Part shown: positions 2,521 to 64,000 of the stretch, piece by piece
Numbering within the stretch: the first letter of the stretch is position 1
How the letters are laid out: each line of letters starts with the position of its first letter
NCBI RefSeq assembly: GCF_003991155.1
Contig: NZ_CP031293.1
Origin: Escherichia coli
GTDB lineage: Bacteria > Pseudomonadota > Gammaproteobacteria > Enterobacterales > Enterobacteriaceae
Strand: one strand, 5' to 3'
DNA length: 64,000 bases
The notes under the pieces: generated by a model
What the model was told of the DNA's origin: nothing
Seen by the model: the letters and a program-made list of their open reading frames with translations, nothing else
Database searches by the model: none
Program-made: the position numbers and the translations under genes

Positions 2521-2572
2521 AATTATCTCCCTGTTTTGGCAATAAGAAAGAAAAGGGCTTACGCCCTCTTCA

Positions 2573-5376: not shown

Positions 5377-5379
5377 TAT

Positions 5380-21941: not shown

Positions 21942-22017
21942 TCCTCTGTAGTTCAGTCGGTAGAACGGCGGACTGTTAATCCGTATGTCACTGGTTCGAG
22001 TCCAGTCAGAGGAGCCA
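21942..22017 (+). tRNA. asnT: tRNA-Asn (anticodon GTT), asnT locus
   Basis: TCCTCTGTAGTTCAGTCGGTAGAACGGCGGACTGTTAATCCGTATGTCACTGGTTCGAGTCCAGTCAGAGGAGCCA, matching E. coli tRNA-Asn. Confidence 0.95.
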
Positions 22018-23569: not shown

Positions 23570-23738
23570 ATGAAAACGATAAAGACCTACATAACTGCCG
23601 ACGGGCGAGATCTGTATGCAGAGTTTTTTAAAGGGTTACGCAACCCCATCGCGAAGGCAACGATCGCTTCCCGGATCAACCGGATGGCTTCGGACAATTT
23701 TGGCGACCATAAGCCCTGCCGGGAAGGTGTCTGGGAAC
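23570..23738 (+). pseudogene. 5' fragment of an addiction-module killer protein (RelE/ParE superfamily), truncated by IS insertion
   Basis: MKTIKTYITADGRDLYAEFFKGL...NFGDHKPCREGVWEL runs directly into the IS terminal repeat at 23739; no continuation on the other side. Confidence 0.45.
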
Positions 23739-23746
23739 TGTAGTGG

Positions 23747-25709
<1,963 letters not shown>

Positions 25710-48359: not shown

Positions 48360-50348
48360 ATGTCATTAAAAGGATTGCGTTTTACGCTGAAAGTGGACGG
48401 CCAAAATGCGGACACCTTCGCCGTGGTAAATTTCTGGCTGATGCAGAATTTCTCGTTTCCATTTGTTATGGATGTAGATGTCGCCAGCAAGGAGTTTGGT
48501 ATTCAAGCAAATAGCTTGCTGGAAAAAAAAGCCACGCTGATCATCTGGCAGGGCCCCAAGGCGCTGCGTTATGTATCGGGTGTAATTGCCAGTTTCGGAA
48601 TGAAAGAAAACAATAACTGGCAGATGCAGTACCGCCTTCGTATCCAGCCACCTCTGTGGCGTAGCGGCCTACGCCAGAATTTCCGTATTTTTCAACAGCA
48701 AGATATTGCAACTATTTCAGCCACCTTACTGGATGAGAATGGTGTAACAGACTGGGAGCCATCCTTAAACAGTGAGCACCCTACTCGCGAGTTCTGCGTA
48801 CAGTATGGCGAAACGGACCTGGCATTTCTGTCACGGCTATGGGCAGAAGAAGGCATTTATTTTTATGATAAGTTAGCCCCGAACGGCCCGGATCAGAAAC
48901 TGACATTATGTGATGATGCAGCAGGTTTGTCGCCAATAGGAACCATTACCTTCAACCCAAATACCCGAACTGAAGCCGACAAGGAGTGCATCAATGCGTT
49001 TCATTACGAAGCTAATGTTCGTCCTTCATCAATACTGAGCAAAGACTACACCTTTAAAACCCCCGGCTGGGAAGGCAAATATATCCGACAGGGCGAGAAT
49101 CTGAACAACCAGTTTGAACAGTATGAAATCTATGACTACCCAGGACGTTTCAAGGATGAACAGCACGGGCAGGATTTTACCCGTTATCAGATGGATGGGT
49201 TGCGTAATGATGCGGAATTAGGCAGCGGTAGCAGCAATTCGCCGAGGCTATGGCCAGGAACCCGTTTCAAACTGGAGAACCATCCACAGAAAACCCTGAA
49301 CCGGGAATGGCAAGTGATCGGTAGCACACTAACGGGCGAACAGCCGCAGGCATTACATGGTAGCCAGGGTTACGGAACCTCGATGCATAACCAGTTTACT
49401 GTTATCCCGGCAGACCGTACCTGGCGTCCACAGCCAATGATGAAGCCAAAGGTAGATGGTCCACAAAGTGCCATTGTCACCGGTCCGGCTGGCGAGGAAA
49501 TTTTCTGCGATGAACATGGCCGGGTACGGGTGAAGTTTCACTGGGACAGAACCAAAACCAAAGATGAGAATAACTCCTGTTGGGTACGAGTGTCACAAGC
49601 CTGGGCTGGAGCCGGATTCGGCAACCTTGCCATTCCGCGTATAGACCAGGAAGTGATTGTCGATTTTCTTAACGGCGATCCCGACCAGCCCATCATCATG
49701 GGACGTACTTATCACCAGGATAACCGCTCTCCCGGTGGTCTGCCTGGCACCAAAACGCAGATGACTATCCGTTCAAAAACCTACAAAGGTGAGGGTTTTA
49801 ACGAACTACGTTTTGAGGATGCGACCAGTAACGAACAGCTTTATATGCACGCCCAGAAGGACATGGTGACAGAGGTACTGCATGACCGGACGACAACAGT
49901 GGATCACGACCATACCGAAACAGTGAAGAATAACCAGACGGTCACAGTAGTTGTTGGTCAGACGGTCAATGTGGGCAGTAAAAAAGAAGGCGGACACGAC
50001 CAGAAAGTGACGGTTGCCCACGACCAGACAGTCACGGTTCAGAACAACCAGACGCTGAATGTCACAGAAAAGCGTGAAAAAAATGTGGGTGGAGACCAGA
50101 AGGTCACTATCACTGGCGGCGATGATGAAACTGTCATGAAGTCGCAAAAGGTAACAGTAAAAGAAAACTATACGCTTGATGTCACCAAAGAAACGAAGAT
50201 TATTTCCGGCGAGTCGATTGAGCTTATCTGTGGCTCCTGCTCCCTGAAAATGGAAAAAGGTGGCAAGGTAACAATCTCCGGCTCAGAGTTTGATTTTACT
50301 GCTGGTGGCCTTGTGCATATCAACGGTAAAGACGTATTTATCAACTGA
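48360..50348 (+). CDS. vgrG: T6SS spike protein VgrG (TssI)
   Basis: 662 aa; gp27/gp5-like pattern and C-terminal beta-helix repeats (VTV..NQTV); AGGGAGG RBS. Confidence 0.9.
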   Translation: MSLKGLRFTLKVDGQNADTFAVVNFWLMQNFSFPFVMDVDVASKEFGIQANSLLEKKATLIIWQGPKALRYVSGVIASFGMKENNNWQMQYRLRIQPPLWRSGLRQNFRIFQQQDIATISATLLDENGVTDWEPSLNSEHPTREFCVQYGETDLAFLSRLWAEEGIYFYDKLAPNGPDQKLTLCDDAAGLSPIGTITFNPNTRTEADKECINAFHYEANVRPSSILSKDYTFKTPGWEGKYIRQGENLNNQFEQYEIYDYPGRFKDEQHGQDFTRYQMDGLRNDAELGSGSSNSPRLWPGTRFKLENHPQKTLNREWQVIGSTLTGEQPQALHGSQGYGTSMHNQFTVIPADRTWRPQPMMKPKVDGPQSAIVTGPAGEEIFCDEHGRVRVKFHWDRTKTKDENNSCWVRVSQAWAGAGFGNLAIPRIDQEVIVDFLNGDPDQPIIMGRTYHQDNRSPGGLPGTKTQMTIRSKTYKGEGFNELRFEDATSNEQLYMHAQKDMVTEVLHDRTTTVDHDHTETVKNNQTVTVVVGQTVNVGSKKEGGHDQKVTVAHDQTVTVQNNQTLNVTEKREKNVGGDQKVTITGGDDETVMKSQKVTVKENYTLDVTKETKIISGESIELICGSCSLKMEKGGKVTISGSEFDFTAGGLVHINGKDVFIN

Positions 50349-50358
50349 GGCGTGAAAA

Positions 50359-51540
50359 ATGGAATTTCGTAATCTTACGCCGTTTTCAGTAATGCAATAT
50401 GCAATGGACGACAAACACAACGAGCGTCATTGTGTGGTCGCCATGAAAACCGGCTTCCGGCTGAAGCAGGACGAGAATGGTCAGTGGCAGGCACAACTGA
50501 TGGAAAACCCGCCATTGCCGCTCTGTGTGGAGGATGAGTATGCCGGGGAGATGAACACCTCTCCGGTACTGCGTGAAAGTGACCTTGCTCCTCTGAAACC
50601 CGCCTGTGACATCATCATCAACGGAACAGCTTATACGCCGGGAGGCGCTGCCGTGCCAGAAATGACGGCAGGCGTTCTTATGCTCTCATCGACAGGTGAG
50701 GTGCTGACAGACAAAAAACTGCGGATAACAGGCCAGCGTTTCTACAGGTACCAGCCGTTAATCCGCCAGTGGTATGAAACTGAACCGGAACCCTTCACCT
50801 CCCTGCCGCTTGACTACCGTTACGCTTTCGGCGGCGAATGCCGCGTGGAGGCAGGCAGCGAATATGCCAGCCGCGTCCCCGAAGAATATCGCCTGACCGA
50901 AGACCAGCGTCGGGAACACCCAAACCAGGAGAATCCACCACTGGCGCATATGGCCTGTCCGGTCAATCCACTCGGATTAGGCTATATGCAGCAGTGGTAT
51001 CTGCGGGCCTGTCAGGTTCAGCAGGTTGAAGCGCCCCGCATCATCGCCGTGGACAGCCCATTCACACTCAAACAGTTCACAGACTGTCTCGAAGGGAAAG
51101 CAGACTGGTTTGCCCCCGAATTTCAGCCAGCCGGTTTTGGCTGTATCGGGCGCGCCTGGCTGCCACGGTTATCTCTTGCTGGCACCTATGACCAGGAGTG
51201 GCTGGAAACACAACACCCCGACCTGCCGGATGATTTTGATTTTAACTACTGGAACTGCGCCCCGGATGACCAGCGCATCCCTTTTCCTCTGCCAGGACTG
51301 GGATTTGTACTGACGGGTTTTCGCCCGGAGGGCGATATCCGGTTCACCCTGCCCGCACATGAAGGACGCCTTCTGTTGCGCGCCATGAGCGGGCATCGAA
51401 TGCCATTACCCATGTTGCTGGATACGGTGGAAATCAATACTGACACCCTGACCGTGGCGCTGACCTGGCGCTTTCTGCTGCCCAACAGCACACCACCGGT
51501 GCGGGTACTGGAAGCCCGCTACAGAACAAGGAGCGCCTAA
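50359..51540 (+). CDS. DUF2169-family T6SS adaptor protein
   Basis: Position between vgrG and PAAR-Rhs; size and sequence pattern as in DUF2169 adaptors. Confidence 0.7.
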   Translation: MEFRNLTPFSVMQYAMDDKHNERHCVVAMKTGFRLKQDENGQWQAQLMENPPLPLCVEDEYAGEMNTSPVLRESDLAPLKPACDIIINGTAYTPGGAAVPEMTAGVLMLSSTGEVLTDKKLRITGQRFYRYQPLIRQWYETEPEPFTSLPLDYRYAFGGECRVEAGSEYASRVPEEYRLTEDQRREHPNQENPPLAHMACPVNPLGLGYMQQWYLRACQVQQVEAPRIIAVDSPFTLKQFTDCLEGKADWFAPEFQPAGFGCIGRAWLPRLSLAGTYDQEWLETQHPDLPDDFDFNYWNCAPDDQRIPFPLPGLGFVLTGFRPEGDIRFTLPAHEGRLLLRAMSGHRMPLPMLLDTVEINTDTLTVALTWRFLLPNSTPPVRVLEARYRTRSA

Positions 51541-51542
51541 GG

Positions 51543-54500
51543 ATGGCCGACAACTTTACAGCCCGTAAGCACGGACAATGGAAAGTCATCAGCACCAAAC
51601 CGGATGTCTGTAAAACACCACGCGGAGATTCCACACCGCCTGTCCCCTACCCTGTCACAGCCAATATGGCTGAAGCAGTGATGGTGGTGCAGTCGGTGAA
51701 GCTGAACGGCTGCCCGGCAGTGGTCCTAAACCAGAGCACCATCCCTCAGACAAAGGGCGATGCCGCAGGTGCGGCAAAAGGTGTCAGCAGCGGTACAGTG
51801 GGTGATGTCTGCGAGCCGCTGGACCACAGCGAGACAGTATTTTTTGGCGGCAAGCCGATACTGCGTCACCACGATGAGTTCTGGATGAACAGCCGTAACA
51901 CCATCGGCCTAATCGTGGGCCAGCCGCCACCGGCAGGCGTGCCTGCGGAAGAAGCGGACCCGCCGGATGAACCGGAGACGGAAGAAGAGGAAGAAAAGAG
52001 CAGCTGGCTGGACTGGGTGCAGACAGGACTGGATATTGCCGGGTTTGCACCGGGCTTTGGTTTTTTTGCCGATATGCTGAATGCGGGTATCAGCCTGGCG
52101 CGTGGTAATTATGCTGACGCGTTTATGTCTGTGGCGGCCTCACTTCCGGGGATAGGTGATGCGGCAGCGGCTGGCAGGATGGCAGTTAAAGGACGAAAAG
52201 CAGCAAAGGCGGCTAAAGAAGCCGCCGAACGAGCCGCAAAGAAAAAGCTGGAGAAGGAGGCGGCAATGCGCTCCCGTGCGCTGAGAAAAGCCCAGAAGAA
52301 AGCGGCAGCTAAAAAGAAAGGGGGTATCGTTAAGGGGAAAGCGAAAAATAACAAAGGCAAAGGTAAGGGTGCGGAAAGCAGTGATTGTACCAAACCCGGC
52401 GAACCCGTGGACGCCGGAACCGGCGACTTTCTCCAGCACTTCAGCGTTCTTTCCCTTCCCGGCTCACTTCCTCTCACGCTTTCCCGGTTTTACCGTTCTC
52501 AGGCACAACATGGCGGCATCTTTGGTCCCAAATGGACCGATGAATGGTCCGTATCCCTGAAGGTACACACTGACGGCAACCTGCACTTCACTGACGGTGA
52601 AGGGGTGGAACTGTACTACCCCATTCCGCAGGACGGCATTTTTGAGGGTGCAGCGAACTCCCGCCAGGCACACTACCGGCTGACGGGCGACATGAGCGGA
52701 GAACTGTCGTTGTCCGACCGCCGCACACAGCAGACACAGATTTTTTCTCAGGCAGGCACAGGTACTTATTTGCTGTCTGCCCTTCATGACAATTACGGCA
52801 ACCGGATTGATTTTATCCGCACGGACGGCCTGCTGACAGAAATCCGCCACAGCGACGGCTACACGCTCGCGCTTGCCTGGCTACAGCAGCAACTAATGAG
52901 CATTGACCTGGCAACACCGCGGCGTCAGCGCCTTGTCACCTGTCAGTACGATGATAATGGTTATCTGGCAGAGTGCGATACTTTCCAGTTTTCTCATCTG
53001 TGGCATGAATACACGACTGAAGGGTTTATGACCCGCTGGCGGGATACGGATAAAACCTGCGTGGATATCCGTTACGACCCGCAGGGGCGCGCCATCAGCA
53101 CCCTGTCAACCGAAGGCTATTACGACGACCGTTTTATCTATAACGATGAAGAGCACTGTACCACCTACGTGGATGCAGAAGGCGGCGAAACCCGTTACTG
53201 GTATAACGAAGACGGCCTGGTCACCCACAGCACCGACCCGCTGGGCCGTGAAGAGATTACAGTATGGGAAAACACGCAACTTCAGTCGCGCACCGACGCG
53301 CTGGGGCGTAAAACAGCGTATGAATATAACGATGAGGGCGATATCTGGCATGTTGCCCTGCCGGGCGGCTACAGCCTCTATTACGACTACAACGACGCCG
53401 GGCAGTTAACCCGCCTGACCCTGCCGGGCGACCAGGTATGGCTGTGGGACTACGACGATAAGGGCAGCATGGTCTGCCTGACCGACCCGCAGGGCCGGAA
53501 ACAGCAGTTCAGCTACAGCCAACAGGGTGATTTACTGGCGCGGATTATGCCGGGCGGAGCCACCTGGCGCTGGAGCCATGACGCCCTGCACCAGGTGCGC
53601 GAGACCACTGCGCCGGACGGCGGCGTCACGCAGACTGAACAGGATATGCTGGGCCGCCTGCTGAGTGTGAAAGACCCGCTGGGCTTCACCACGCAGTTCC
53701 GCCACAGCAAAACCCACGCTGGGCCGCTGGGCAGCGTGGAAGAAATTAACCGCCCGGATGGCGTGCGGGAACTGATGCGCCAGAACAGTGAAAAGCTGCC
53801 GGAGAGCTTCACCGATGGCGAAGGCAAAACCACCCGCTACGAATATGGTGCATTTGACCTGTTAACGGCAGTTATCCGCCCGGATGGTGAACGGCTGGAG
53901 TGCCGCTACGACAAGCTGACCCGCCTGACCGAAATCACCAACGCGGAAGGTGAGCACTACCGTCTGGAATATGATAAAGCCGGGCAGCTTATCGCGGAAA
54001 CCGACTTCACCGGGCGCACACTGACCTACAGCTACGATGCGGCAGGCCGCTGTACCCGCACCACCTTCCCGGACGGCACTCACCTGAACCGCCGCTACAA
54101 CGTGACCGACCAGGTAACGGACGAGGAAGTCACCCAGGGCGACAGCAACCGTACCCTGAGCGCCACCACCTTCCTCTATGACACGCTGTGCCGCCTGGTG
54201 GAGGCGAAAAACGATGATGCCATCGTTACGTATGAATATGACAGTGCCAGCAGGGTTGTGGCCGAGACAATCAACGGCAGGCGTACAGAATACAGTTACG
54301 ACAATAATCTCGACACAGTTTCACAGCGCACCACCGCAGGCATCACAGAGCACTTCACCCGCAACCTGATGGGCTATCTGACCACCTGGCAGATAGCCGA
54401 CCATGCCCCGCTGACATTTGAACATGACCTGCGCGGCATGGAAACGTCCCGACGCAGCGAGGCCGGGTTTTACCAGACGCTGGCTTACACCCGCACAGGA

Positions 54501-55961
54501 ATGCCAACGAAGCAGAATGCCGGGGACCACCGGGCCGGCTCGGATGAGCGGAATAAAAGCCTGAAGCGCCAGTGGCTGTATGACAAAGCGTATAATCTGA
54601 CCGCAATCGCCGACTCGCTGCGCGGCTCCATGTTCAACACCATCACGGCGAACGACCAGATAAGCCACGCCACCTGGACGGGTGATTCCAGTCAGTTTCC
54701 GCTGTGTGAGGAACTGTTCACTTACGACAAAAACCTGAACATCACCCGCCGCCAGACCCGGGTGAATGACATACTGGAAAGCGAAACGCACCAGCAGAAC
54801 CGGCATGGACGGGTGATATCAAGTGAGCATGAAGGCTGGCGGCACTCAACGCACCGCATCAATCCGCAGACAGGAAAACCGGAAGAAGGGAAATTTGTCC
54901 GGGTGGTGAACGCCCATAACGTCACCTGGAAATACGATGTTAACGGCAGGCTGATACAGAAGCTGGTCGATAAAGGCGGTTACCGACCGCTGGAATGGCG
55001 CTACAGATGGGACGCGCGCAGCCAGCTAACCGGGCTGGAAACCCCGGATGGTGAACGCTGGGAATACAAATACGACCCCTTCGGCAGGCGCATCAGCAAG
55101 CGCTGCACCAACCGCGACAAACCCGGTATGGATTTTCACTGGAATGGCGACCAGTTGACGGAGGAAATTCCGGTCGGCGCTGACAGTAGTCCTGATACTG
55201 AAAACAGCATCCGCTGGATATATGAGCCGGGAAGTTTTACACCGATTGCGCGTTATGAGAAGGGGCAACTGCATTATGCAGTGACGAACACGGTTGGCCG
55301 CGTACAGGAACTGCTGACAGAAAACGGCCTGATAGTCTGGAAAGGCAAGCAGCAGCTATGGGGCCGTGAGGAAGGCAGAAATAAGAAAGATGCGCCCACA
55401 TGCCGGTTACGTTTTCCGGGGCAGTACGAGGATGTGGAATCAGGGTTGTACTATAACCGGTTCCGGTACTATGATTGCGAGACAGGACAATATCTGTGTG
55501 CTGATCCGTCAGGATTGGACGGAGGGATTAATCCATATGGGTATGTGCATAATCCATTAGGGTGGGCAGACCCTTTTGGGCTAGCCAAAAAGAACGCTCA
55601 GAATACAGTTTTCAGATATCTGAGTGCAGACGATCGTATTCGATATGAGAATGGTCAAAGTTTATTACCTAAAGGTGAGTTTGGTTCAATAGTTGAACAT
55701 GTTGATGGAAAAAATACAGGACATATTTCTGCATCGCTTACCAAGTGTGCAGCTAAAATATTTGATTCGGGCAATGGGTATATAGAAATTGATGTTCAAA
55801 AAATTATCGACAGTGGTATATCATTTATTGATCACAAGAATGTTATGCAAGCGGTTCGTCGTAGCGGCTCTTTAACTAACAGGAGAGATGCCGAAAGAGC
55901 ACTAGAAGTTCTCTTCAAAGGTGAAATTCCCTTTGATGCAATTATTCGTCATGTTATATAA
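51543..55961 (+). CDS. rhs: PAAR-like (DUF4150) Rhs-repeat polymorphic toxin with variable C-terminal toxin domain
   Basis: N-terminal PAAR-like region; many YD/Rhs repeats; demarcating motif PYGYVHNPLGWADPFGL at about 55540-55583 followed by an unrelated AT-rich 125-aa C-terminus. Confidence 0.9.
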   Translation: MADNFTARKHGQWKVISTKPDVCKTPRGDSTPPVPYPVTANMAEAVMVVQSVKLNGCPAVVLNQSTIPQTKGDAAGAAKGVSSGTVGDVCEPLDHSETVFFGGKPILRHHDEFWMNSRNTIGLIVGQPPPAGVPAEEADPPDEPETEEEEEKSSWLDWVQTGLDIAGFAPGFGFFADMLNAGISLARGNYADAFMSVAASLPGIGDAAAAGRMAVKGRKAAKAAKEAAERAAKKKLEKEAAMRSRALRKAQKKAAAKKKGGIVKGKAKNNKGKGKGAESSDCTKPGEPVDAGTGDFLQHFSVLSLPGSLPLTLSRFYRSQAQHGGIFGPKWTDEWSVSLKVHTDGNLHFTDGEGVELYYPIPQDGIFEGAANSRQAHYRLTGDMSGELSLSDRRTQQTQIFSQAGTGTYLLSALHDNYGNRIDFIRTDGLLTEIRHSDGYTLALAWLQQQLMSIDLATPRRQRLVTCQYDDNGYLAECDTFQFSHLWHEYTTEGFMTRWRDTDKTCVDIRYDPQGRAISTLSTEGYYDDRFIYNDEEHCTTYVDAEGGETRYWYNEDGLVTHSTDPLGREEITVWENTQLQSRTDALGRKTAYEYNDEGDIWHVALPGGYSLYYDYNDAGQLTRLTLPGDQVWLWDYDDKGSMVCLTDPQGRKQQFSYSQQGDLLARIMPGGATWRWSHDALHQVRETTAPDGGVTQTEQDMLGRLLSVKDPLGFTTQFRHSKTHAGPLGSVEEINRPDGVRELMRQNSEKLPESFTDGEGKTTRYEYGAFDLLTAVIRPDGERLECRYDKLTRLTEITNAEGEHYRLEYDKAGQLIAETDFTGRTLTYSYDAAGRCTRTTFPDGTHLNRRYNVTDQVTDEEVTQGDSNRTLSATTFLYDTLCRLVEAKNDDAIVTYEYDSASRVVAETINGRRTEYSYDNNLDTVSQRTTAGITEHFTRNLMGYLTTWQIADHAPLTFEHDLRGMETSRRSEAGFYQTLAYTRTGMPTKQNAGDHRAGSDERNKSLKRQWLYDKAYNLTAIADSLRGSMFNTITANDQISHATWTGDSSQFPLCEELFTYDKNLNITRRQTRVNDILESETHQQNRHGRVISSEHEGWRHSTHRINPQTGKPEEGKFVRVVNAHNVTWKYDVNGRLIQKLVDKGGYRPLEWRYRWDARSQLTGLETPDGERWEYKYDPFGRRISKRCTNRDKPGMDFHWNGDQLTEEIPVGADSSPDTENSIRWIYEPGSFTPIARYEKGQLHYAVTNTVGRVQELLTENGLIVWKGKQQLWGREEGRNKKDAPTCRLRFPGQYEDVESGLYYNRFRYYDCETGQYLCADPSGLDGGINPYGYVHNPLGWADPFGLAKKNAQNTVFRYLSADDRIRYENGQSLLPKGEFGSIVEHVDGKNTGHISASLTKCAAKIFDSGNGYIEIDVQKIIDSGISFIDHKNVMQAVRRSGSLTNRRDAERALEVLFKGEIPFDAIIRHVI

Positions 55962-55980
55962 AATAGGAAGGAGTGGAATA

Positions 55981-56274
55981 ATGCCTGCACTATCTGAGTA
56001 CTCGAATGTACACAACACTGTTTTTAATATTTTGATTTGTAAAGGATATCGATTGTGGCATGAAAAAAAACAAGAAAGATATTATGCCGAAAAAGATGGT
56101 TGGGATTTTGTAGCCAATAGCCCGTGTGCTCTCTTGGGGCTCATTGCTATTTATGAATATAAAAAACCCGATCATTATTATGAGTACTGGTGGAAAGATG
56201 AAGGATTACATTTAGAAAAAAACATTAGTGAAATCGCTCCTGAATATAACTCAATCATTTTAAAAAATAATTAG
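55981..56274 (+). CDS. Putative Rhs immunity protein
   Basis: Small AT-rich ORF immediately after the toxin domain, GGAAGGAG RBS before ATG 55981. Confidence 0.5.
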   Translation: MPALSEYSNVHNTVFNILICKGYRLWHEKKQERYYAEKDGWDFVANSPCALLGLIAIYEYKKPDHYYEYWWKDEGLHLEKNISEIAPEYNSIILKNN

Positions 56275-56299
56275 TTGTATACTACTATGATGATGACTC

Positions 56300-56810
56300 G
56301 GTAATAATAACAAACGAAACCCTCAACGGCAGACGGACGGAATATGGCCACGACGCAGAACAGGATTATGTCACCCGGCGCACCACCGCAGGCATTACGG
56401 AACGTTTCACCCGCGGGTTGATGGGTGAGCTGACATCGTGGCAGATAGCCGACCATGCGCCGCTGGCATTTGAATATGACCTGCGCGGCCAGGAAACATC
56501 CAGACAAAGCGAGGCCGGATTTTACCAGACGCAGGGCTACACGCAGACAGGAATGCTGACAACGCAGCGTTCGGGAAGCCAGGCAGAGCCGGAGGCGAAG
56601 AATAAAGACCTGCAACGCCAGTGGCTGTACGACCATGCGTATAACCTGACGATGATATCGGACACGCTGCGCGGGACGATGGTCAACAGCGTGACAGCGA
56701 ACGACCAGATAAGCCATGCCACCTGGACGGGCAGCAGTAATATGCCGATGAGTGAGGAACGCTTCCTCTACGACAAAAACCTGAATATCACCGCCGCCAG
56801 ACCTGGGTGA
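56300..56810 (+). pseudogene. Orphan Rhs core fragment, frameshifted relative to the downstream CT ORF
   Basis: Near-duplicate of main rhs about 54270-54770; a 1-nt difference near 56795 (ccc to cc) breaks the frame. Confidence 0.6.
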
Positions 56811-58030
56811 ACGAGGTACTGGAGAGCGAGACACATCAGCAGCAACAGCATGGCCGGGTGGCGTCGCGTGGACACAAAGAATGGCGACACTCAACGCACC
56901 GGATTAACCCGGACACTGGCAAGCCGGAGGAAGGGAAATTTGTCCGGGTGGTCAACGCGCACGGTATCACCTGGAAGTACGATATTAACGGTCGTCTGGT
57001 GGAGAAGCTGGTCGATAAAGGTGGCTATCGCCCTCTCCAGTGGCGTTACAAATGGGATTCACGCAGCCAGTTGACCGGGCTGGAAACACCGGATGGTGAA
57101 CGCTGGGAGTATAAATACGACCCGTTCGGCAGGCGCATCAGCAAACGCTGTACCAGCCACGATAAACCCGGTATGGATTTTCACTGGAACGGCGACCAGT
57201 TGACGGAGGAAATTCCGGTTGGTGTGGATGGCAAACCGGAAGACGAAAACGCCATCCGCTGGATATACGAGCCGGGAGATTTCACGCCGTTTGCGCGTTA
57301 TGAGAAGGGGCAACTGAATTATGCGGTGACGGACACGGTTGGACGAGTACAGGAACTGCTGACCGAAGACGGCCTGATTGTCTGGAAAGGCAAGCAGCAG
57401 CTATGGGGACGTGAGGAAGGCATCAATAAGGGCGATGCACCCACCTGTCGGTTACGTTTTCCGGGGCAGTATGAGGACACAGAATCGGGACTGTACTATA
57501 ACCGGTTCCGGTACTATGATTGCGGGACGGGGCAGTATATCTCTTCAGATCCGATTGGGCTGAGAGGGGGAATAAAACCATATGGCTATGTTCATAGTCC
57601 ATTAAATTATATTGACCCATTAGGTTTAGCTAACGCTAAAGTTATAGATAATGTTTTGCATATTGTGGATAAATTTGGAGTAAATGGGGCTGCTCCTGAT
57701 ACTGCAGCATCCAGAGAATTGGCTGAGTTTGTAAAAAGATGGAACGAGCAGATAGTGGCGAATGGTGGTTCAATGGCCAGACGTTCTGTTTGTAAAGAAG
57801 TCAGAAAAGCAGCAAGTGAAGCCGCCGCTGCTGAGAGAAAACTTAACCCAAGTTTATATGCTAATGGTGAAGTGGCGGGGCATATTCCAGATGTTGGATG
57901 GGGTGGAAAAATTGATGGTCCGTTTATGCCGTTAAGTCCAAAAGTAAATTCTTATATTGGTGGGTTAACTCAAGCAGTGCCTGTTGGTACAACTTATACA
58001 TCGGTAAGAATAGTGGACATTATACTATGA
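56807..58030 (+). CDS. Orphan Rhs C-terminal region with alternative toxin domain
   Basis: Rhs core ending in PYGYVHSPLNYIDPLGL followed by a distinct 139-aa C-terminus; GTG start, no own promoter evident. Confidence 0.6.
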   Translation: MNEVLESETHQQQQHGRVASRGHKEWRHSTHRINPDTGKPEEGKFVRVVNAHGITWKYDINGRLVEKLVDKGGYRPLQWRYKWDSRSQLTGLETPDGERWEYKYDPFGRRISKRCTSHDKPGMDFHWNGDQLTEEIPVGVDGKPEDENAIRWIYEPGDFTPFARYEKGQLNYAVTDTVGRVQELLTEDGLIVWKGKQQLWGREEGINKGDAPTCRLRFPGQYEDTESGLYYNRFRYYDCGTGQYISSDPIGLRGGIKPYGYVHSPLNYIDPLGLANAKVIDNVLHIVDKFGVNGAAPDTAASRELAEFVKRWNEQIVANGGSMARRSVCKEVRKAASEAAAAERKLNPSLYANGEVAGHIPDVGWGGKIDGPFMPLSPKVNSYIGGLTQAVPVGTTYTSVRIVDIIL

Positions 58031-58554
58031 AAAAATTAAAAGAATTGATTAACGATATTTTGGTTGATTTAAAAATAAATATAACGGAATTACCTGTCAC
58101 TTTACACAGCCATGATAAAGTACCCACGCTAAAAAAAGATTACTATAGAAATCTTAGCCCTATGCTAAAGGTTAGATTTGGTATGTTCTCTAGTTGGAAG
58201 AATGCAACACATGGGGATTGGCTTTCAATAGAAGAGATGATGGAAATTTGGCGTGATGATTTGGTAATAAATGACCGATTGTGGCGAATTAAGGAGAATC
58301 AGATAGCTGCTCGTAATAATTGGGACAATGATGCTTCTTCGCTTTTCAAAAATAATAGATTATCACTTTTTGCTGGAAGTGAGTCTACCTATGAACGAAT
58401 ATATCTGCTTTGGTTAGATAGTGAAATTGAACCTGAGATATGGGTATATGACTGCAATGGTGAATCGAGATATAAAAATCTAGAGTCTTATTTAAATGCA
58501 TATATAAATGACGATGTTAGTGCTAGTAATGAGTCATGGAGAGCCAAATACTGA
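58027..58554 (+). CDS. Putative immunity protein for orphan toxin 1
   Basis: AT-rich ORF overlapping the toxin stop (ATGA). Confidence 0.5.
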   Translation: MKKLKELINDILVDLKINITELPVTLHSHDKVPTLKKDYYRNLSPMLKVRFGMFSSWKNATHGDWLSIEEMMEIWRDDLVINDRLWRIKENQIAARNNWDNDASSLFKNNRLSLFAGSESTYERIYLLWLDSEIEPEIWVYDCNGESRYKNLESYLNAYINDDVSASNESWRAKY

Positions 58555-58777
58555 CGCAGCGACAGTCACCCAGTTAGAGTGAGAGCATGAAAAATATGTT
58601 TTTATACAATATTTTATCGCTATATTTTTGTCATCTGTTTTTGCGCGAAAATCACTCGACAATTTGCATGATATAACCAATTACTCATTAAATTTACCTG
58701 CAGCCTAGTAGGGCTGTCTGACCACCTGGCAGATAGCGGACCATGCCCCGCTGACATTTGAGCATGACCTGCGCGGC

Positions 58778-60310
58778 ATGGAAACCTCCCGACGCAGCGG
58801 GGCCGGATTTTACCAGACGCTGGCTTACACGCGCACAGGGATGCCAGCGAAGCAGAATGCCGGGGACCACCAGGCCGGGCCGCATGAGCGAAATAAAAGC
58901 CTGGAGCGGGAATGGCTTTACGACAAAGCGTATAACCTGACCGCAATCGCCGACTCGCTGCGCGGCTCCATGTTCAACACCATCACGGCAAACGACCAGA
59001 TAAGCCACGCCACCTGGACGGGTGATTCCAGCCAGTTTCCGCTGTGCGAGGAGCTGTTCACTTACGATAAAAACCTGAACATCACCCGCCGCCAGACCCG
59101 TGTGAATAACGTCCTGGAAAGCGAAACGCACCAGCAACAGCAGCATGGCCGGGTGATATCCAGTGAGCATGAAGGCTGGCGGCACTCAACGCACCGCATC
59201 AATCCGCAGACAGGAAAACCGGAAGAAGGGAAATTTGTCCGGGTGGTGAATGCCCATAACATCACCTGGAAATACGATGTTAACGGCAGGCTGGTACAGA
59301 AGCTGGTCGATAAAGGTGGCTACCGCCCTCTCGAATGGCGCTACAGATGGGATGCAAGAAGCCAGCTAACCGGACTGGAAACCCCGGATGGCGAACGCTG
59401 GGAATATAAATACGACCCGTTTGGCAGGCGCATCAGCAAACGCTGCACCAACCGCGACAAACCCGGCATGGATTTTCACTGGAACGGCGACCAGCTAACG
59501 GAGGAAATTCCGGTTGGCGTTAACGGTAAACCGGAAGACGAAAACGCCATCCGCTGGATATACGAGCCGGGAGATTTCACGCCGTTTGCGCGTTATGAGA
59601 AGGGGCAACTGAATTATGCGGTGACGGACACGGTTGGACGAGTACAGGAACTGCTGACCGAAGACGGCCTGATTGTCTGGAAAGGCAAGCAGCAGCTATG
59701 GGGACGTGAGGAAGGCATCAATAAGGGCGATGCACCCACCTGTCGGTTACGTTTTCCGGGGCAGTATGAGGACACAGAATCGGGACTGTACTATAACCGG
59801 TTCCGGTACTATGATTGCGAGACGGGGCAGTATATCTCTTCAGATCCCATAGGATTACTTGGGGGGATAAATCCTTATGGATATGTTCGTAACTCGCTGG
59901 AATTGATTGACCCTTGGGGGCTAGACAGTAAACGCGCTCGACTCCTCAAACAAAAAGGATTCCAAGAACATCATATTATCAGCGATAAAAACAGCTTAAC
60001 CAAAAACCATCCATTGTTGAAGGCCGCGGCATACGACCTACAGAAAATGAAAAACAAGATTTTCTTACCTACAAAATGTGAACTTCATGCAACTCGATCC
60101 ATTCATAAAGGGAGGCATCAAAAAAAGGTAAGTGAAAACCTGGCAAATGAAATGGACAAAGTGTTAGAACACGGGAGAAAACATGGGTGGACGCAAAAAC
60201 AATACAGTGACGCACTTGACGAAATAGTTGCTAAAGAAAGAGCCCTCTTGAAATCTGGCCATAGAGCTTTAAATAAAAACAGACGTGCATGGTCTGTTTT
60301 ACTAACTTAA
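58778..60310 (+). CDS. Orphan Rhs C-terminal region 2 with HNH-superfamily-like nuclease toxin domain
   Basis: Homology to main rhs begins about 58712; ends in PYGYVRNSLELIDPWGL then a C-terminus containing FQEHHIISDK ... HATRSIHKGRH. Confidence 0.6.
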   Translation: METSRRSGAGFYQTLAYTRTGMPAKQNAGDHQAGPHERNKSLEREWLYDKAYNLTAIADSLRGSMFNTITANDQISHATWTGDSSQFPLCEELFTYDKNLNITRRQTRVNNVLESETHQQQQHGRVISSEHEGWRHSTHRINPQTGKPEEGKFVRVVNAHNITWKYDVNGRLVQKLVDKGGYRPLEWRYRWDARSQLTGLETPDGERWEYKYDPFGRRISKRCTNRDKPGMDFHWNGDQLTEEIPVGVNGKPEDENAIRWIYEPGDFTPFARYEKGQLNYAVTDTVGRVQELLTEDGLIVWKGKQQLWGREEGINKGDAPTCRLRFPGQYEDTESGLYYNRFRYYDCETGQYISSDPIGLLGGINPYGYVRNSLELIDPWGLDSKRARLLKQKGFQEHHIISDKNSLTKNHPLLKAAAYDLQKMKNKIFLPTKCELHATRSIHKGRHQKKVSENLANEMDKVLEHGRKHGWTQKQYSDALDEIVAKERALLKSGHRALNKNRRAWSVLLT

Positions 60311-60322
60311 CAGAGAAAATAT

Positions 60323-60880
60323 ATGTATAGATGGACAATCCCAGAACAATATGCCAATAAGTATATTGGAGAATATCAATATGAATCTTTTGATTACTTA
60401 CTTTTTTCTCATAGCACACCAATTGAAAGAGTTGAGAATATCAATCCAGTCATTATCTACGCGATGCCCGATGAAATGATAAATAAATATGATTGCTTGC
60501 CAAATAGTTCATTGATCCCCGTAGTTAATGAACGACTAAAGGACTTCCTGGAAACACATGCCAAAGGTAATGTTGAGTTTCATAAAATAGACCTTCACAC
60601 GAACAATGGACTCAAAGATGGTTTTTATCTTTTGAATACACTCACAAAACTACCGTTAATTGATATGCAGCACTCTCATTGCCAGTATATTCCCGGAACA
60701 ACAGCGATCATGGGGTTTGAACAGGTTTTTTTTATTGAAGAGCCTCCGGAAGATTTTTGCATTGCACGATGCGCAGAATATTCATCTTATCTTATGTTAT
60801 CTGATTCATTAGTAAAAAAAATGAAAAAAGAAAAATTTAAAGGAATTTCATATTCGAAAGTTCCTGTTCACCGAGGTTAA
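60323..60880 (+). CDS. Putative immunity protein for orphan toxin 2
   Basis: 185-aa AT-rich ORF 13 bp after the toxin stop. Confidence 0.5.
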   Translation: MYRWTIPEQYANKYIGEYQYESFDYLLFSHSTPIERVENINPVIIYAMPDEMINKYDCLPNSSLIPVVNERLKDFLETHAKGNVEFHKIDLHTNNGLKDGFYLLNTLTKLPLIDMQHSHCQYIPGTTAIMGFEQVFFIEEPPEDFCIARCAEYSSYLMLSDSLVKKMKKEKFKGISYSKVPVHRG

Positions 60881-60964
60881 AATAATTGGACATATAACAA
60901 ATATATTAAATCGGTAGCATCTCCAGGGAAGGATCATCGTATTCGTATGCCGTAGGCACGCCGT

Positions 60965-61357
60965 AATCTGGTATAACGAAGACGGCCTGCTCACCCGCAG
61001 CACCGACCCGCTCGGTCGGGAAGAGATTACGGTATGGGAGAACACGCAACTCCAGTCACGCACCGATGCACTGGGGCGTAAAACAGCGTATGAATACAAC
61101 GATGAGGGCGATATCTGGCACGTCGCCCTGCCGGGTGGTTACAGTCTGTACTATGACTACAACGACGCCGGACAGTTAACCCGCCTGACCCTGCCGGGCG
61201 ACCAGGTATGGCAGTGGGATTACGACGATAAGGGCAGCATGGTCTGCCTGACCGACCCGCAGGGCCGGAAACAGCAGTTCAGCTACTGCGCACAGGGGGA
61301 TTTACTGGCGCGGATTATGCCGGGCGGAGCCACCTGGCGCTGGAGCCATGACGCCCC
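60965..61357 (+). repeat. Rhs core remnant (duplicate of main rhs about 53196-53590)
   Basis: About 390 bp nearly identical to the internal rhs segment, no start codon. Confidence 0.7.
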
Positions 61358-61507
61358 AGGGAACAGGGAAAGATCACGTAACGCTGCTTTTTTGTACTAA
61401 ATAATTCGCATTTTATGTTTAAAAATTGAGATATTCCTCATTACCTAAAGCTTTTTTTTATTGCTTATACATGATCAAATACTCCTTACATAATTAAGGA
61501 GAACAAA

Positions 61508-62644
61508 ATGGAACTTAAAAAATTGATGGAACATATTTCTATTATCCCCGATTACAGACAAGCCTGGAAAGTGGAACATAAATTATCGGATATTCTACTG
61601 TTGACTATTTGTGCCGTTATTTCGGGTGCAGAAGGCTGGGAAGATATAGAGGATTTTGGGGAAACACATCTCGATTTTTTGAAGCAATATGGTGATTTTG
61701 ATAATGGTATTCCTGTTCACGATACCATTGCCAGAGTTGTATCCTGTATCAGTCCTGCAAAATTTCACGAGTGCTTTATTAACTGGATGCGTGACTGCCA
61801 TTCTTCAGATGATAAAGACGTCATTGCAATTGATGGAAAAACACTCCGGCATTCTTATGACAAGAGTCGCCGCAAGGGTGCGATTCATGTCATTAGTGCG
61901 TTCTCAACAATGCACAGTCTGGTCATCGGACAGATCAGGACGGATGAGAAATCCAATGAAATTACAGCTATCCCTGAACTTCTTAACATGCTGGATATTA
62001 AAGGAAAAATCATCACAACTGATGCGATGGGTTGCCAGAAAGATATTGCAGAGAAGATACAAAAACAGGGCGGTGATTATTTATTCGCTGTAAAAGGAAA
62101 TCAGGGGCTGCTTAATAAAGCCTTTGAGGAAAAATTTCCACTGAAAGAATTAAATAATCCAGAGCATGACAGTTACGCCATTAGTGAAAAGAGTCACGGC
62201 AGAGAAGAAATCCGTCTTCATATTGTTTGCGATGTCCCTGATGAACTTATTGATTTCACGTTTGAATGGAAAGGACTGAAGAAATTATGCGTGGCAGTCT
62301 CCTTTCGGTCAATAATAGCAGAACAAAAGAAAGAGCCAGAAATGACGGTCAGATATTATATCAGTTCTGCTGATTTAACCGCAGAGAAGTTCGCCACAGC
62401 AATCCGAAACCACTGGCACGTGGAGAATAAGCTGCACTGGCGTCTGGACGTGGTAATGAATGAAGACGACTGCAAAATAAGAAGAGGAAACGCAGCAGAA
62501 TTATTTTCAGGGATACGGCACATTGCTATTAATATTTTGACGAATGATAAGGTATTCAAGGCAGGGTTAAGACGTAAGATGCGAAAAGCAGCCATGGACA
62601 GAAACTATCTCGCGTCAGTCCTTGCGGGGAGCGGGCTTTCGTAA
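61508..62644 (+). CDS. ISAs1-family transposase (H-repeat-associated protein)
   Basis: [18 protein letters not shown]...[20 protein letters not shown] matches H-rpt/ISAs1 transposases found beside rhs loci. Confidence 0.85.
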
Positions 62645-62645
62645 T

Positions 62646-62762
62646 CTTGCCCTGGGGTTTTGGGCTAACGAAATGGAAAATTTAACATAAATTTAATTCA
62701 TGCTCTTGCCCTGATTTCGGGCTGACATAATAGTGAAGATTTTAACACAAATTTAATTCATG
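62646..62762. repeat. Two imperfect tandem direct repeats of about 57 bp
   Basis: cttgccctg...ttaaca(t/c)aaatttaattcatg occurs twice back to back after the transposase stop. Confidence 0.5.
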
Positions 62763-62813
62763 TCCTCATCCCAGTATAGACTTTAATTTTATTTTTTTGA
62801 TAAGGTACTACAT

Positions 62814-63647
62814 ATGGCTTTCGTTTCTGCGTTAGTTAATTTGCGTTATGATTTAAACAAATATATTGTAGAGTTACGACGCATTTCAAATCTTGCCGCG
62901 ACATTTCTTATGGAAGATGATTTTATTAAGAATTTCTATCTTAATGAAGTTGAAATAAGCATAAATAATTATAATTTTAGATTCAATAACGAGCGAAACC
63001 CATTCAAGCAAAGGGAAATAGTTTTTGAACTTAAAGAAGAAGTTGAGTTGGAAAAAAAAGAATATGATATATTAAGAATGAAAGATCATGTTACTTATAT
63101 GGTAACTGATATGTTTGAAGAACAAGGCGTGTTAAAATATGTAAAAATATTTGGAGGGGTTGCTACAGGAGGAATAGAACTTTTCACTGCCTATGGGTAT
63201 TATCAATTGGGTAAAACATTACACCTTAGAAGATTACGTGGGATAGCAATTGTTTTTGCTTCTTATGGCGTTGATAATATATGGGAGTCAGTCTCTCCTT
63301 TGATTTTTGAAGAAGCGAATGCAGGGCCTCTTAGACGTGTTATTCGGGGAATTGCTGGTGAGTTTGGAATAAGTGAAGATGATTCTGATTTAGGGTATAG
63401 TTTTGTTGAATTTTCATTGTCCTTATATAATACTTTTAATGCAAGAAAATTGTTTCCGAATGAAAATAGGTTAGTTATAGGTGTGGGAAGAAAAAGGCCA
63501 GGGACTGGTAGGCTTTTTAATAATGTAAGCTGGGATTATGCATCTAAATGGTCAAAAATGAATACAAATATGAAGATTTGGAATTTAGGGTATAGCGCTT
63601 ATAAAGCCAAACTGGAATTTTATGATGAGAAATATAAATTTAAATAA
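62814..63647 (+). CDS. Hypothetical protein
   Basis: 277-aa AT-rich ORF. Confidence 0.35.
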   Translation: MAFVSALVNLRYDLNKYIVELRRISNLAATFLMEDDFIKNFYLNEVEISINNYNFRFNNERNPFKQREIVFELKEEVELEKKEYDILRMKDHVTYMVTDMFEEQGVLKYVKIFGGVATGGIELFTAYGYYQLGKTLHLRRLRGIAIVFASYGVDNIWESVSPLIFEEANAGPLRRVIRGIAGEFGISEDDSDLGYSFVEFSLSLYNTFNARKLFPNENRLVIGVGRKRPGTGRLFNNVSWDYASKWSKMNTNMKIWNLGYSAYKAKLEFYDEKYKFK

Positions 63648-63723
63648 TATTTCACATTACGTACTTTTAAAAAAGTATAATTATTAGCCGGTTAATTCAA
63701 TTATATAACACAGCCTCATTGCG

Positions 63724-63966
63724 CTAAAATAAAATTCGTATACCAAGTTTTATCAGCTTTAACTGAGTGATGATCTTTACATTATTGTTTTTTGCATCTG
63801 AGCATAAAATCATGACACTAAATATTGAAAACACAGCAGACATAAAGAAAAAAGCGGCCCCTCTTTCCAAGAGGATTCCGAGAATGAAAGCAAAAAATGC
63901 CACTGCCGGAAACCATAGCGACAAAGCGTCTTTTGCAGAGTCATATATCACATCTATTAGTGTCAA
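63724..63966 (-). CDS. Hypothetical small membrane protein (doubtful)
   Basis: 80-aa ORF with two hydrophobic segments. Confidence 0.2.
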   Translation of the reverse strand: MTLIDVIYDSAKDALSLWFPAVAFFAFILGILLERGAAFFFMSAVFSIFSVMILCSDAKNNNVKIITQLKLIKLGIRILF

Positions 63967-64000
63967 ATCTTTAGTTAAATTTGGATGAAGAGTTTTTTAA

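Follow-up and report, generated by a model that had tools for sequence, protein, structure and literature searches.

Displaced Rhs toxin tips with intact candidate immunity genes behind a T6SS-linked PAAR-Rhs gene in Escherichia coli

Enterobacterial rhs loci are known to contain dissociated tips that lack start sites, some with frameshifts, along with core fragments that have no tip (PMC2935791, Jackson et al. 2009). In Salmonella, recombinational activation of an orphan after duplication was shown experimentally, with a substrate of 522 bp at 95% identity (PMC3967940, Koskiniemi et al. 2014). Internal expression of orphans was demonstrated for the SPI-6 rhs locus of Salmonella Typhimurium, where the internal TSS lies 89 nt upstream of the PxxxxDPxGL codons (PMC7043789, Starsta et al. 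2020). Assays on modules of Dickeya and E. coli EC93 showed that orphan cdiA-CT/cdiI and rhs-CT/rhsI pairs work and that their immunity genes are expressed (PMC3150448, Poole et al. 2011). Tde/Tdi, an Ntox15 HxxD DNase with its immunity protein, forms T6SS pairs in Agrobacterium and Bacteroidales (PMC4096383, PMC10470768), and Imm11 was named as the partner of Tox-AHH in a survey of polymorphic toxins (PMC3482391, Zhang et al. 2012).

The window analysed here, a stretch of 64,000 nucleotides, is an E. coli tRNA-Asn island. It carries a complete T6SS and a PAAR-Rhs effector gene in an Hcp-VgrG-DUF2169-PAAR-Rhs context. BLAST of the window against this main gene detected three downstream copies of its core (E=0, far beyond chance), two of which are 5'-truncated and run into an unrelated toxin tip that is followed by a small ORF. 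The features are:

51543..55961, + strand: main rhs gene, 1472 aa (ORF list; NCBIfam YD repeats and Rhs_assc_core)
55584-55958, + strand: main toxin tip, 125 aa, the C-terminal part of main rhs
55981..56274, + strand: candidate immunity gene of the main tip, 97 aa (from position, Shine-Dalgarno sequence and low GC, 33%)
56315..57604, + strand: orphan 1 rhs core fragment, 79.5% identical to main 54263-55559 (BLAST)
57629..58030, + strand: orphan 1 toxin tip, 133 aa after PLNYIDPLGL, probable nuclease by predicted fold and motif
58027..58554, + strand: orphan 1 immunity gene (imm1), 175 aa, predicted SUKH/SMI1-KNR4 fold
58693..59892, + strand: orphan 2 rhs core fragment, 89.25% identical to main 54354-55552 with 1 gap (BLAST)
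59924..60310, + strand: orphan 2 toxin tip, 128 aa after SLELIDPWGL (Pfam PF14412 AHH, E 1.8e-15)
60323..60880, + strand: orphan 2 immunity gene (imm2), 185 aa, Imm11/DUF1629 (Pfam PF07791 Imm11, E 7e-11)
60968..61356, + strand: tipless mid-core rhs fragment, 93.1% identical to main 53198-53586 (BLAST)
61389..62658, + strand: ISEc1 (ISAs1-family, 'H-repeat'), closing the array (NCBIfam transpos_ISAs1, E 3e-124)

The main protein has a PAAR-like (DUF4150) N-terminus and then an Rhs/YD shell, with PLGWADPFGL ending at amino acid 1347. Its RefSeq name is PAAR-like domain-containing protein, and Hcp, VgrG and DUF2169 precede it. Searches of Pfam and PDB with the main tip gave no match, and neither did a Pfam search with the 97-aa candidate immunity protein. 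The gene for the latter has a strong Shine-Dalgarno sequence (GGAAGGAG) 8 nt 5' of its ATG, and another locus (L014) carries a variant 81% identical to the main tip, followed by an ORF 64% identical to the candidate.

Two further Rhs core 3' segments had been predicted downstream of the main gene, each ending in a different toxin domain and followed by an immunity-like ORF, and BLAST places them at 56315-57604 and 58693-59892. After DPxGL, the three tips of the locus are mutually unrelated (no BLASTP match below E=2), and the small ORFs behind them (55981-56274, 58027-58554 and 60323-60880) are all intact. The proposed core identity of about 90% holds for orphan 2 (89.25%) but not for orphan 1 (79.5%). 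GC content is 55.5-57% in the core, 38-41% in the tips and 33-34% in the immunity ORFs, which is a typical Rhs profile. A delivery gene of full length is attached to the first tip module only, and neither orphan has a delivery domain or a start signal: the 5' end of the orphan 1 core shows no Shine-Dalgarno sequence and no usable start, and no Shine-Dalgarno sequence precedes the ATG of orphan 2 at 58778. With a truncated core, a DPxGL boundary, an unrelated low-GC tip and a conserved immunity-type ORF, both units fit, by their sequence features, the name orphan rhs-CT/immunity cassettes given in the original prediction.

The frameshift anticipated near 56795 in orphan 1 comes from the loss of one base (1-nt deletion) from a short run of C (ACCCGCC to A-CCGCC) between 56790 and 56791. 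This core aligns to main 54263-55559 with 7 gap positions and also has two in-frame 3-nt deletions, and the frameshift splits orphan 1 into open frames at 56271-56810 and 56756-58030. The tip is probably an HxxD-type nuclease. Its model has a nuclease-like alpha+beta fold, closest to NucB and Rhs2-CT, with an invariant H..D..N, and the tip family is C-terminal in every member, full-length PAAR-Rhs proteins included. As in Tde/Tdi, orphan copies occur in Bacteroides islands, and the invariant G-H-x-P-D...N of the tip aligns with the Ntox15 HxxD region. However, no Pfam family matched the tip, Ntox15 included, and Tde1 is mostly alpha-helical, so we liken the pair to Tde/Tdi in its way of working and do not assign it as a member. 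The imm1 ATG overlaps the stop codon of the toxin (ATGA), and the imm1 product is predicted to adopt a SUKH immunity fold. An imm1-type ORF stands behind this tip type in three independent contexts, namely Bacteroides, Myroides and a full-length T6SS Rhs.

Orphan 2 had been described as in frame from about 58712, which is exact: its frame opens there, just after a 1-nt insertion at 58710, and runs to 60310. In its demarcation motif S replaces the first P. The tip is a predicted AHH-family HNH/EndoVII nuclease domain and its partner, which RefSeq names an imm11 family protein, matches Imm11, as in Tox-AHH/Imm11 pairs, but the AHH motif starts with E (EHH) instead of A, and the pair here belongs to an orphan.

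At the distal end, the tipless core fragment has an open frame across the homology. The boundaries of ISEc1 were set by comparison with a second copy, and its transposase ORF is 61508-62644. Neither element was listed previously. This IS also delimits the arrays of L012, L013 and L014, and array content across related loci is lineage-specific and ISAs1-bounded.

These features resemble the arrays of PMC2935791, in which partial-core direct repeats, each with a non-homologous low-GC tip, stand behind an intact rhs gene. There too, fragments lack proper start sites, some are frameshifted, tipless core pieces are present and relatives of the tips sit on intact rhs genes of other taxa. The present array is short (two tips), with an ISAs1-family element at its end. 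Unlike the near-identical cores of those arrays, its core fragments are 79.5% and 89% identical to the resident gene at the nucleotide level, and orphan 1 would therefore be either old or from a distant donor. As in the modules of PMC3150448, the demarcation motif is kept, initiation signals are missing, an intact, presumably cognate immunity gene is next, and the orphan tips occur fused to full-length genes in other bacteria, but the two orphans here are known from sequence whereas those modules were assayed. The locus is also like rhs-main/rhs-CT-orphan of Salmonella Typhimurium SPI-6, where a T6SS-linked full-length Rhs precedes an orphan tip and immunity gene with a common 3' core; it differs in having two orphans, one of them frameshifted.

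The displaced-tip arrangement is real and already textbook. Very probably, the array belongs with the classical Rhs arrays of 'dissociated tips' (orphan rhs-CT/rhsI) and arose as C-terminal ends were displaced one after another on a PAAR-Rhs effector delivered by the T6SS. Cassettes of core end, tip and immunity gene from diverged functional rhs alleles would have recombined into the core, each shunting the incumbent tip downstream. Import rather than local decay is indicated because the cores diverge from the main gene under constraint (dN/dS 0.20 and dS 0.71 for orphan 1, dN/dS 0.15 and dS 0.36 for orphan 2), and because of the GC contrast between core (56%) and tips with immunity genes (33-41%).

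As read from the alignments, past homologous exchange is clear in the history of the locus. The longest exact match between the orphans is a 292-nt tract (57233..57524, + strand, in orphan 1; 59528-59819 in orphan 2; 100% identity), which resembles a gene-conversion patch, with diverged sequence on both flanks. The 5' two-thirds of the orphan 2 core are ~93% identical to the main gene, and its 3' part is identical to orphan 1. The main rhs chassis is also a mosaic whose identity falls toward the core end, and in other E. coli at least five unrelated tips occur on it, with DPxGL at amino acid 1347 in each. The order of acquisition events was not recoverable from the mosaic pattern.

The cassettes were also proposed to be a substrate for toxin switching. 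In the strong form of this idea, the array is kept because frequent recombination with the main gene swaps the deployed toxin and creates newly armed subpopulations. The recent exchange within the array, the 1.2-1.3 kb of common core, the nine exact blocks of at least 25 nt between main gene and orphan 2 (longest 89 nt), the variety of tips on the chassis and the Salmonella precedent make a substrate plausible, but we regard frequent switching as doubtful. The substrates here (1200 bp with 89% identity for orphan 2, 1297 bp with 79.5% for orphan 1) fall short of the 95% identity in Salmonella, and main gene and orphan 1 share just five blocks of at least 25 nt (longest 33 nt). An orphan 1 chimera would be in frame solely for a crossover 3' of 56790, with crossovers 5' of it giving a frameshifted product. 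Any single crossover with the main gene would remove the main immunity gene and, with orphan 2, imm1 as well. Neither the 28 complete E. coli genomes that have this rhs gene nor the members listed for its 90% protein cluster included a main::orphan chimera. Among those members the alternative tips are never those of orphan 1 or orphan 2, so tip turnover on this chassis looks like import and not local orphan re-use. Because all 28 genomes, which may be one clone, share an identical array, they do not directly indicate that displacement or switching continues in this lineage.

Somewhat less likely still, the orphans might act as toxin-antitoxin-like modules, in which an internal promoter at the core end and a non-canonical start yield low intracellular toxin, making addictive or growth-modulating pairs independent of the T6SS. 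Both orphans carry a sigma70-like AGGACA-17-TATAAC (9/12 matches, versus 7/12 in the main gene) at 57474-57502 and 59769-59797, inside the 292-nt tract, ending 8 nt 5' of the equivalents of the Salmonella TSS (57510 and 59805, derived by the position rule of PMC7043789). An in-frame CTG preceded by GAGG is found at 57491 and 59786. However, these CTG codons lie upstream of the TSS equivalents and hence off the predicted transcript, and the promoter matches are consensus resemblances. Two genomes that lack the T6SS and the main rhs gene retain imm1, orphan 2 and imm2, which could suggest a T6SS-independent role, but the orphan 1 tip is truncated there while imm1 is kept, which fits immunity better than addiction. 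A generic consensus promoter scan gave sites no more numerous than in shuffled sequence, so expression of the orphan immunity genes is inferred.

It is improbable that the orphans and small ORFs are functionless, decaying leftovers awaiting deletion. The orphan 1 frameshift is fixed in all genomes carrying the array, the distal end consists of a core scrap and an IS, arrays in related loci are truncated in association with IS, and imm1 and imm2 have weak Shine-Dalgarno sequences. Against decay, orphan 1 (~1.7 kb) and orphan 2 (~1.6 kb) are free of stops apart from the one 1-nt deletion, the orphan 1 tip keeps every invariant residue of its family, all three immunity ORFs are intact, imm1 and imm2 survive where the T6SS was lost, and comparable systems express protective orphan immunity genes (PMC3150448, PMC10470768). 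Local tandem duplication of the main gene 3' end with divergence in place and no foreign cassettes is effectively refuted despite the regular spacing of the direct repeats (~2.05 and ~2.29 kb), by a core omega of 0.15-0.20 at dS 0.36-0.71 where about 1 is expected of a silent duplicate, by tips and immunity ORFs that are unrelated in sequence and fall into different families, and by the presence of each orphan tip type in distant taxa.

For an array formed by successive displacement, the orphan toxins (orphan 1 probably an HxxD-type nuclease, orphan 2 one of the AHH family) would be undeliverable in their present form. The intact orphan immunity genes (SUKH fold and Imm11) could still be expressed, by read-through or internal promoters, and their products may guard against neighbours deploying matching toxins. 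Through the shared core, the orphans would also form a latent toxin reservoir, which might be re-armed if RecA-type recombination joined them to the main gene, with orphan 2 as the realistic candidate; prior duplication would probably be required, as in Salmonella, so that the main immunity gene stays. Switching here is possible, yet rare on the sampled timescale, and the array makes more sense as the trace of earlier tip displacement, which doubles as a store of immunity genes and of latent toxins.

Downstream of the main PAAR-Rhs effector gene, three further copies of Rhs core sequence were located by BLAST of that gene against the window. Two of them, orphan 1 and orphan 2, are 5'-truncated copies that each lead into a putative C-terminal toxin domain (tip) and a small ORF. 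The third is a tipless fragment, followed by an insertion sequence:

56315-57604, + strand: orphan 1 core, corresponding to main gene 54263-55559 (79.5% identity, 7 gap positions)
58693-59892, + strand: orphan 2 core, corresponding to main gene 54354-55552 (89.25% identity, 1 gap)
60968-61356, + strand: tipless mid-core rhs fragment with an open frame, corresponding to main gene 53198-53586 (93.1% identity)
61389-62658: ISEc1 (ISAs1 family, "H-repeat"), ~32 nucleotides after the tipless fragment

The shared core segments of the original prediction are therefore present, although their proposed identity of about 90 percent describes orphan 2 and not orphan 1, and the array was drawn too short, since the tipless fragment and ISEc1 lie beyond it and were not listed. 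An inverted-repeat search for the ends of ISEc1 found none, and its boundaries were set by comparison with a second copy. In three related loci of E. coli, the rhs array is likewise bounded by an element of this IS family.

The frameshift proposed near position 56795 in orphan 1 corresponds to one C missing from ACCCGCC, between 56790 and 56791, and splits the fragment into open frames at 56271-56810 and 56756-58030. Phase variation at this site can be dismissed, as the run is merely CC versus CCC and is the same in all genomes. Orphan 2 is in frame from exactly 58712, as proposed, and its frame continues to 60310; homology begins 19 nucleotides before the frame because of a 1-nucleotide insertion at 58710. 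The cores end in the demarcation motifs PLNYIDPLGL (orphan 1) and SLELIDPWGL (orphan 2, 59894-59923), the latter with S for the first P of PxxxxDPxGL. The three tips that follow DPxGL in the main gene and the orphans have no mutual similarity detectable by BLASTP, in agreement with the prediction of a different toxin domain in each case. GC content has the usual Rhs signature, at 55.5-57% in core segments, 38-41% in tips and 33-34% in the small downstream ORFs. With a truncated core, a demarcation motif, an unrelated tip, a small ORF and no delivery or start features, both units are correctly called orphan rhs-CT/immunity cassettes, and the array is a long-known, textbook kind of Rhs biology.

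Positions 48360-64000 match E. coli 2016C-3878 (NZ_CP029747) at 100% identity, and positions 1-48681 differ from E. coli AR Bank #0349 (NZ_CP041996) at 3 positions, so the RefSeq annotation of both genomes can be used directly. It places the array in a tRNA-Asn genomic island, with a complete T6SS cluster (tssB/C/E/F/G/J/K/M/A/H, tagH and two hcp genes). The genes 3' of this cluster are annotated as follows, and NCBIfam matches confirm VgrG, YD repeats and the Rhs-associated core domain:

48360-50348, + strand: vgrG, preceded by hcp
50359-51540, + strand: DUF2169 adaptor gene
51543-55961, + strand: PAAR-like Rhs gene (1472 amino acids), the main gene

The gap between vgrG and the DUF2169 gene is only 10 nucleotides here (50349-50358). 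In related E. coli loci it is 2-3.3 kb and holds extra small genes (locus L012, 6795-8813; L013, 5525-8813; L014, 5064-8813), among them a DUF4225 gene in L012 and an ISAs1 copy in L014. The DUF4225 gene of the window lies past ISEc1 (62814-63647) and has no similarity to that of L012 detectable by tblastn. These differences suggest IS-mediated rearrangement of effector cargo.

Elsewhere in the window is a complete type I Thoeris anti-phage system (11002-13066, - strand), with the following genes:

11002-11613, - strand: ThsB (TIR), PADLOC match 2.6e-85
11630-13066, - strand: ThsA (SIR2/STALD), PADLOC match 8e-203

Its carrier is an apparent integrative mobilisable element with a PilV shufflon adhesin, a BfpA-type pilin, a MobQ relaxase and RepL, upstream of tRNA-Ser (20861-20950). 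Just inside the island, and adjoining the integrase gene (22184-23446) at tRNA-Asn (21942-22017), a RelE/ParE-family toxin gene (23570-23740) is truncated by an IS3-family element (23747-24924, - strand).

Two simple histories of the array do not agree with its sequence. Local duplication followed by decay is rejected as the origin of the core fragments by deep synonymous divergence with low dN/dS: between the main gene and orphan 1, dS is 0.71 and dN/dS 0.20, and between the main gene and orphan 2 the values are 0.36 and 0.15. The divergence is deep and was gained under purifying selection, while the cores were part of working genes. A simple two-step insertion history, as in a circular-intermediate model, predicts a pattern other than the mosaic of orphan 2, whose 5' 650 nucleotides share ~93% identity with the main gene and ~75% with orphan 1, and whose 3' core part matches orphan 1 exactly. 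Between the orphans, the longest exact match is 292 nucleotides (57233-57524 and 59528-59819), with diverged sequence on either side; at their overall divergence of 15.5%, such a run would arise by chance with a probability of ~0.845^292, or ~1e-21. We infer that this tract is a recent gene-conversion patch, and attribute the 3' patch of orphan 2 to such later conversion.

Tips carried by the same chassis (a main-type Rhs considered apart from its tip) were surveyed through the protein cluster (90% level) that contains the main Rhs, with 124 members, 15 of them listed. The full-length E. coli proteins listed reach the end of DPxGL at residue 1347 in each case, and continue into unrelated tips of 125, 112, 110 and 96 amino acids; a listed Salmonella protein has yet another. 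Sister alleles of the chassis carry at least five other tips, and because these unrelated tips occur within one 90% cluster, it is a population-level fact that tips have been replaced on exactly this chassis. Along the gene the alleles form a patchwork of 82-100% identity per 200 nucleotides, which falls to 78-86% in the last 400 nucleotides of the core and collapses at the tip, as would be expected if incoming cassettes carry their own core ends. The content of the array also varies by lineage. In L013, ISAs1 comes after a tip, its immunity gene and a 186-nucleotide core-end relic; in L014, ISAs1 comes after a variant of the main tip/immunity pair and the first ~200-250 nucleotides of an orphan core; and in L012, other small ORFs precede ISEc1. 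Core copies with no start site, with frameshifts or with no tip are also reported in work on C-terminal displacement (PMC2935791), and the tip turnover, mosaic alleles and lineage-specific arrays seen here all match that model.

The original prediction also regarded the array as a substrate for toxin switching by homologous recombination. A physical substrate exists, and recombination has occurred in the past, but there is no sign of current activity. The main gene and orphan 2 share 9 exact blocks of at least 25 nucleotides (longest, 89), and the main gene and orphan 1 share 5 (longest, 33). An in-frame chimera with orphan 1 could arise only from a crossover 3' of 56790, where all five of its blocks lie. 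The validated Salmonella substrate is 522 bp at 95% identity, and switching there required prior duplication (PMC3967940), since the main immunity gene is lost in a simple crossover. The tracts in the window are longer but more diverged (89% and 79.5% identity), and the same constraint of immunity-gene deletion applies. The main rhs gene is present in 28 of 5426 complete E. coli genomes, always at at least 99.9% identity and with the same array. No main::orphan chimera occurs among these 28, which have little diversity, or among the 15 listed of the 124 cluster members, whose alternative tips also do not include those of orphan 1 or orphan 2. Tip turnover on this chassis therefore looks like import, as far as these sequences indicate, and not like re-use of local orphans. 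The switching interpretation is a reasonable extrapolation from Salmonella and has the support of clear past recombination, but the genome survey, the foreign tips, the divergence and the loss of the immunity gene weigh against frequent switching, and orphan 1 is a poor substrate for it.

The predicted toxin of orphan 2 belongs to a catalogued pair. Its tip matches Pfam AHH (PF14412; E 1.8e-15, amino acids 390-484), a nuclease family with the HNH/EndoVII fold, and its AHH motif reads EHH. The downstream ORF, imm2 (60323-60880), matches Imm11 (PF07791; 7e-11), which bears out its description as immunity-like. Imm11 is given as a Tox-AHH partner in a survey of polymorphic toxins (PMC3482391), and an AHH domain with its His-His followed by an Imm11 protein fits such a nuclease/immunity pair. 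The main tip (125 amino acids) and its 97-amino-acid partner (together 55584-56274) have no match in Pfam, NCBIfam or PADLOC, or by sequence in the PDB. Nor did the PDB contain a significant sequence match to the orphan 2 tip or to imm1, the partner ORF of orphan 1, and neither the immunity ORFs, DUF4225 nor a downstream 554-amino-acid ORF has PADLOC or NCBIfam matches. The partner of the main tip (55981-56274) is preceded by a strong Shine-Dalgarno sequence (GGAAGGAG). In L014, the same chassis carries a diverged version of the main tip and its partner (81% and 64% identity).

The orphan 1 tip has no Pfam match, even at E<=10, and an exhaustive HMMER search, run on 1.84 billion representatives, places 97 clusters in its family. 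The domain is C-terminal in every case, including carriers of 1172-2621 amino acids. Context was examined for two full-length carriers, and both are PAAR-Rhs proteins; the gene for one follows VgrG in a T6SS cluster. An alignment of 42 sequences has invariant G84, H85, D88 and N107, and H85 and D88 form a catalytic-type HxxD motif that aligns with the H-N-P-D of Ntox15. In a confident AlphaFold model (pLDDT 96), H85 ends one strand, another strand comes next, and N107 lies in the following helix. We favor, with moderate confidence, a predicted function as a metal-dependent DNase. The sole profile link to Ntox15 is a marginal match of the family profile to PDB 8fzz (E 0.005, domain i-E 0.08, 46 residues). 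Because the Pfam model gives no match and the predicted structure lacks the mostly alpha-helical, Tde1-like fold, we do not place the tip in Ntox15, and retain that family only as a functional analogy.

The start of imm1 (58027-58554, 175 amino acids) overlaps the orphan 1 stop codon (ATGA at 58027). This ORF has no match in Pfam or NCBIfam. Its homologs (49-57% identity) are found directly downstream of orphan 1-type tips (44-62% identity) in three independent settings: Bacteroides fragilis contigs, beside two tyrosine recombinases; an orphan array of Myroides odoratimimus; and a genome in which the tip is on a full-length T6SS PAAR-Rhs. The family has 89 clusters of ~175 amino acids in Enterobacterales, Pasteurellaceae and Bacteroidota, and the model of imm1 (pLDDT 93) has the SUKH/SMI1-KNR4 fold. 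Conserved adjacency and a known immunity fold thus give good support to the proposed immunity-like function. Pairs of this type are found in E. coli, Klebsiella, soft-rot Enterobacterales, Pasteurellaceae, Myroides and B. fragilis, and since the last of these is included, the pair is common to different phyla. In the B. fragilis contigs (loci L006-L009), a 142-amino-acid fragment of an orphan 1-type tip and a SUKH-fold immunity gene (2070-6967) directly follow two tyrosine recombinase genes and a Fic gene, a layout that resembles Bacteroidales recombinase-associated acquired interbacterial defence islands.

Neither orphan toxin is deliverable as it stands, because both lack PAAR and shell regions. 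Their frames open inside core homology (56271 and 58712), where no start codon has a ribosome-binding site, and their first ATGs lack Shine-Dalgarno sequences. Both imm1 and imm2 are intact, with weak Shine-Dalgarno sequences. In a consensus scan of 55300-61500, promoter-like sites were rarer than in shuffled sequence, and + strand terminator-like sites were absent, also between modules, so that transcripts of the main operon may read through. In Salmonella, an internal rhs promoter has its transcription start 89 nucleotides upstream of the PxxxxDPxGL codons (PMC7043789). Both orphans have a sigma70-like AGGACA-17-TATAAC (9/12) ending 8 nucleotides before the equivalent position, in a region where the generic scan is not enriched, and the main gene has a 7/12 match there. 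This element, which is spanned by the 292-nucleotide tract, is a candidate internal promoter, and a lead only.

Two E. coli genomes retain the orphans after losing the weapon. In L003 (NZ_CP127324) and L004 (NZ_CM142671), an IS3 element replaces the entire T6SS cluster and main rhs gene, and the sequence corresponding to ~57.6-64 kb of the window keeps a truncated orphan 1 tip, imm1, orphan 2, imm2, ISEc1 and DUF4225. H54 and H55, considered as possible intact or recombinant orphan 1 alleles, were rejected because they are IS3-truncated remnants. The L003/L004 locus is in effect an immunity islet without a weapon; its retention is compatible with a role as an immunity reservoir, and may represent a single event. 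A bolder possibility, which we regard as improbable, is that the orphans are not passive spares. The 292-nucleotide tract would then cover a conserved internal promoter and be kept uniform by gene conversion, both modules would be transcribed independently of the T6SS operon and persist as self-maintaining immunity or toxin-antitoxin-like units, and orphan 1 would represent an undescribed HxxD nuclease and SUKH family exchanged between Proteobacteria and Bacteroidota. Such units would explain why orphans are kept in strains without the T6SS and main rhs.

As a phenomenon, the array alone changes nothing. It has modest value as a clean natural example in which three unrelated toxin/immunity pairs follow one another on one chassis, together with a datable gene-conversion tract, and in which orphan immunity genes are kept by two derivative strains after loss of the weapon. 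The nuclease-like tip of orphan 1 and its SUKH-fold immunity family are the sole uncatalogued part: the tip is compact and confidently modelled with an invariant H..D..N, and neither partner has a Pfam family. Once characterised, this pair would extend the nuclease effectors by one family, and would provide an immunity family of relevance to cross-phylum interbacterial defence in the gut.
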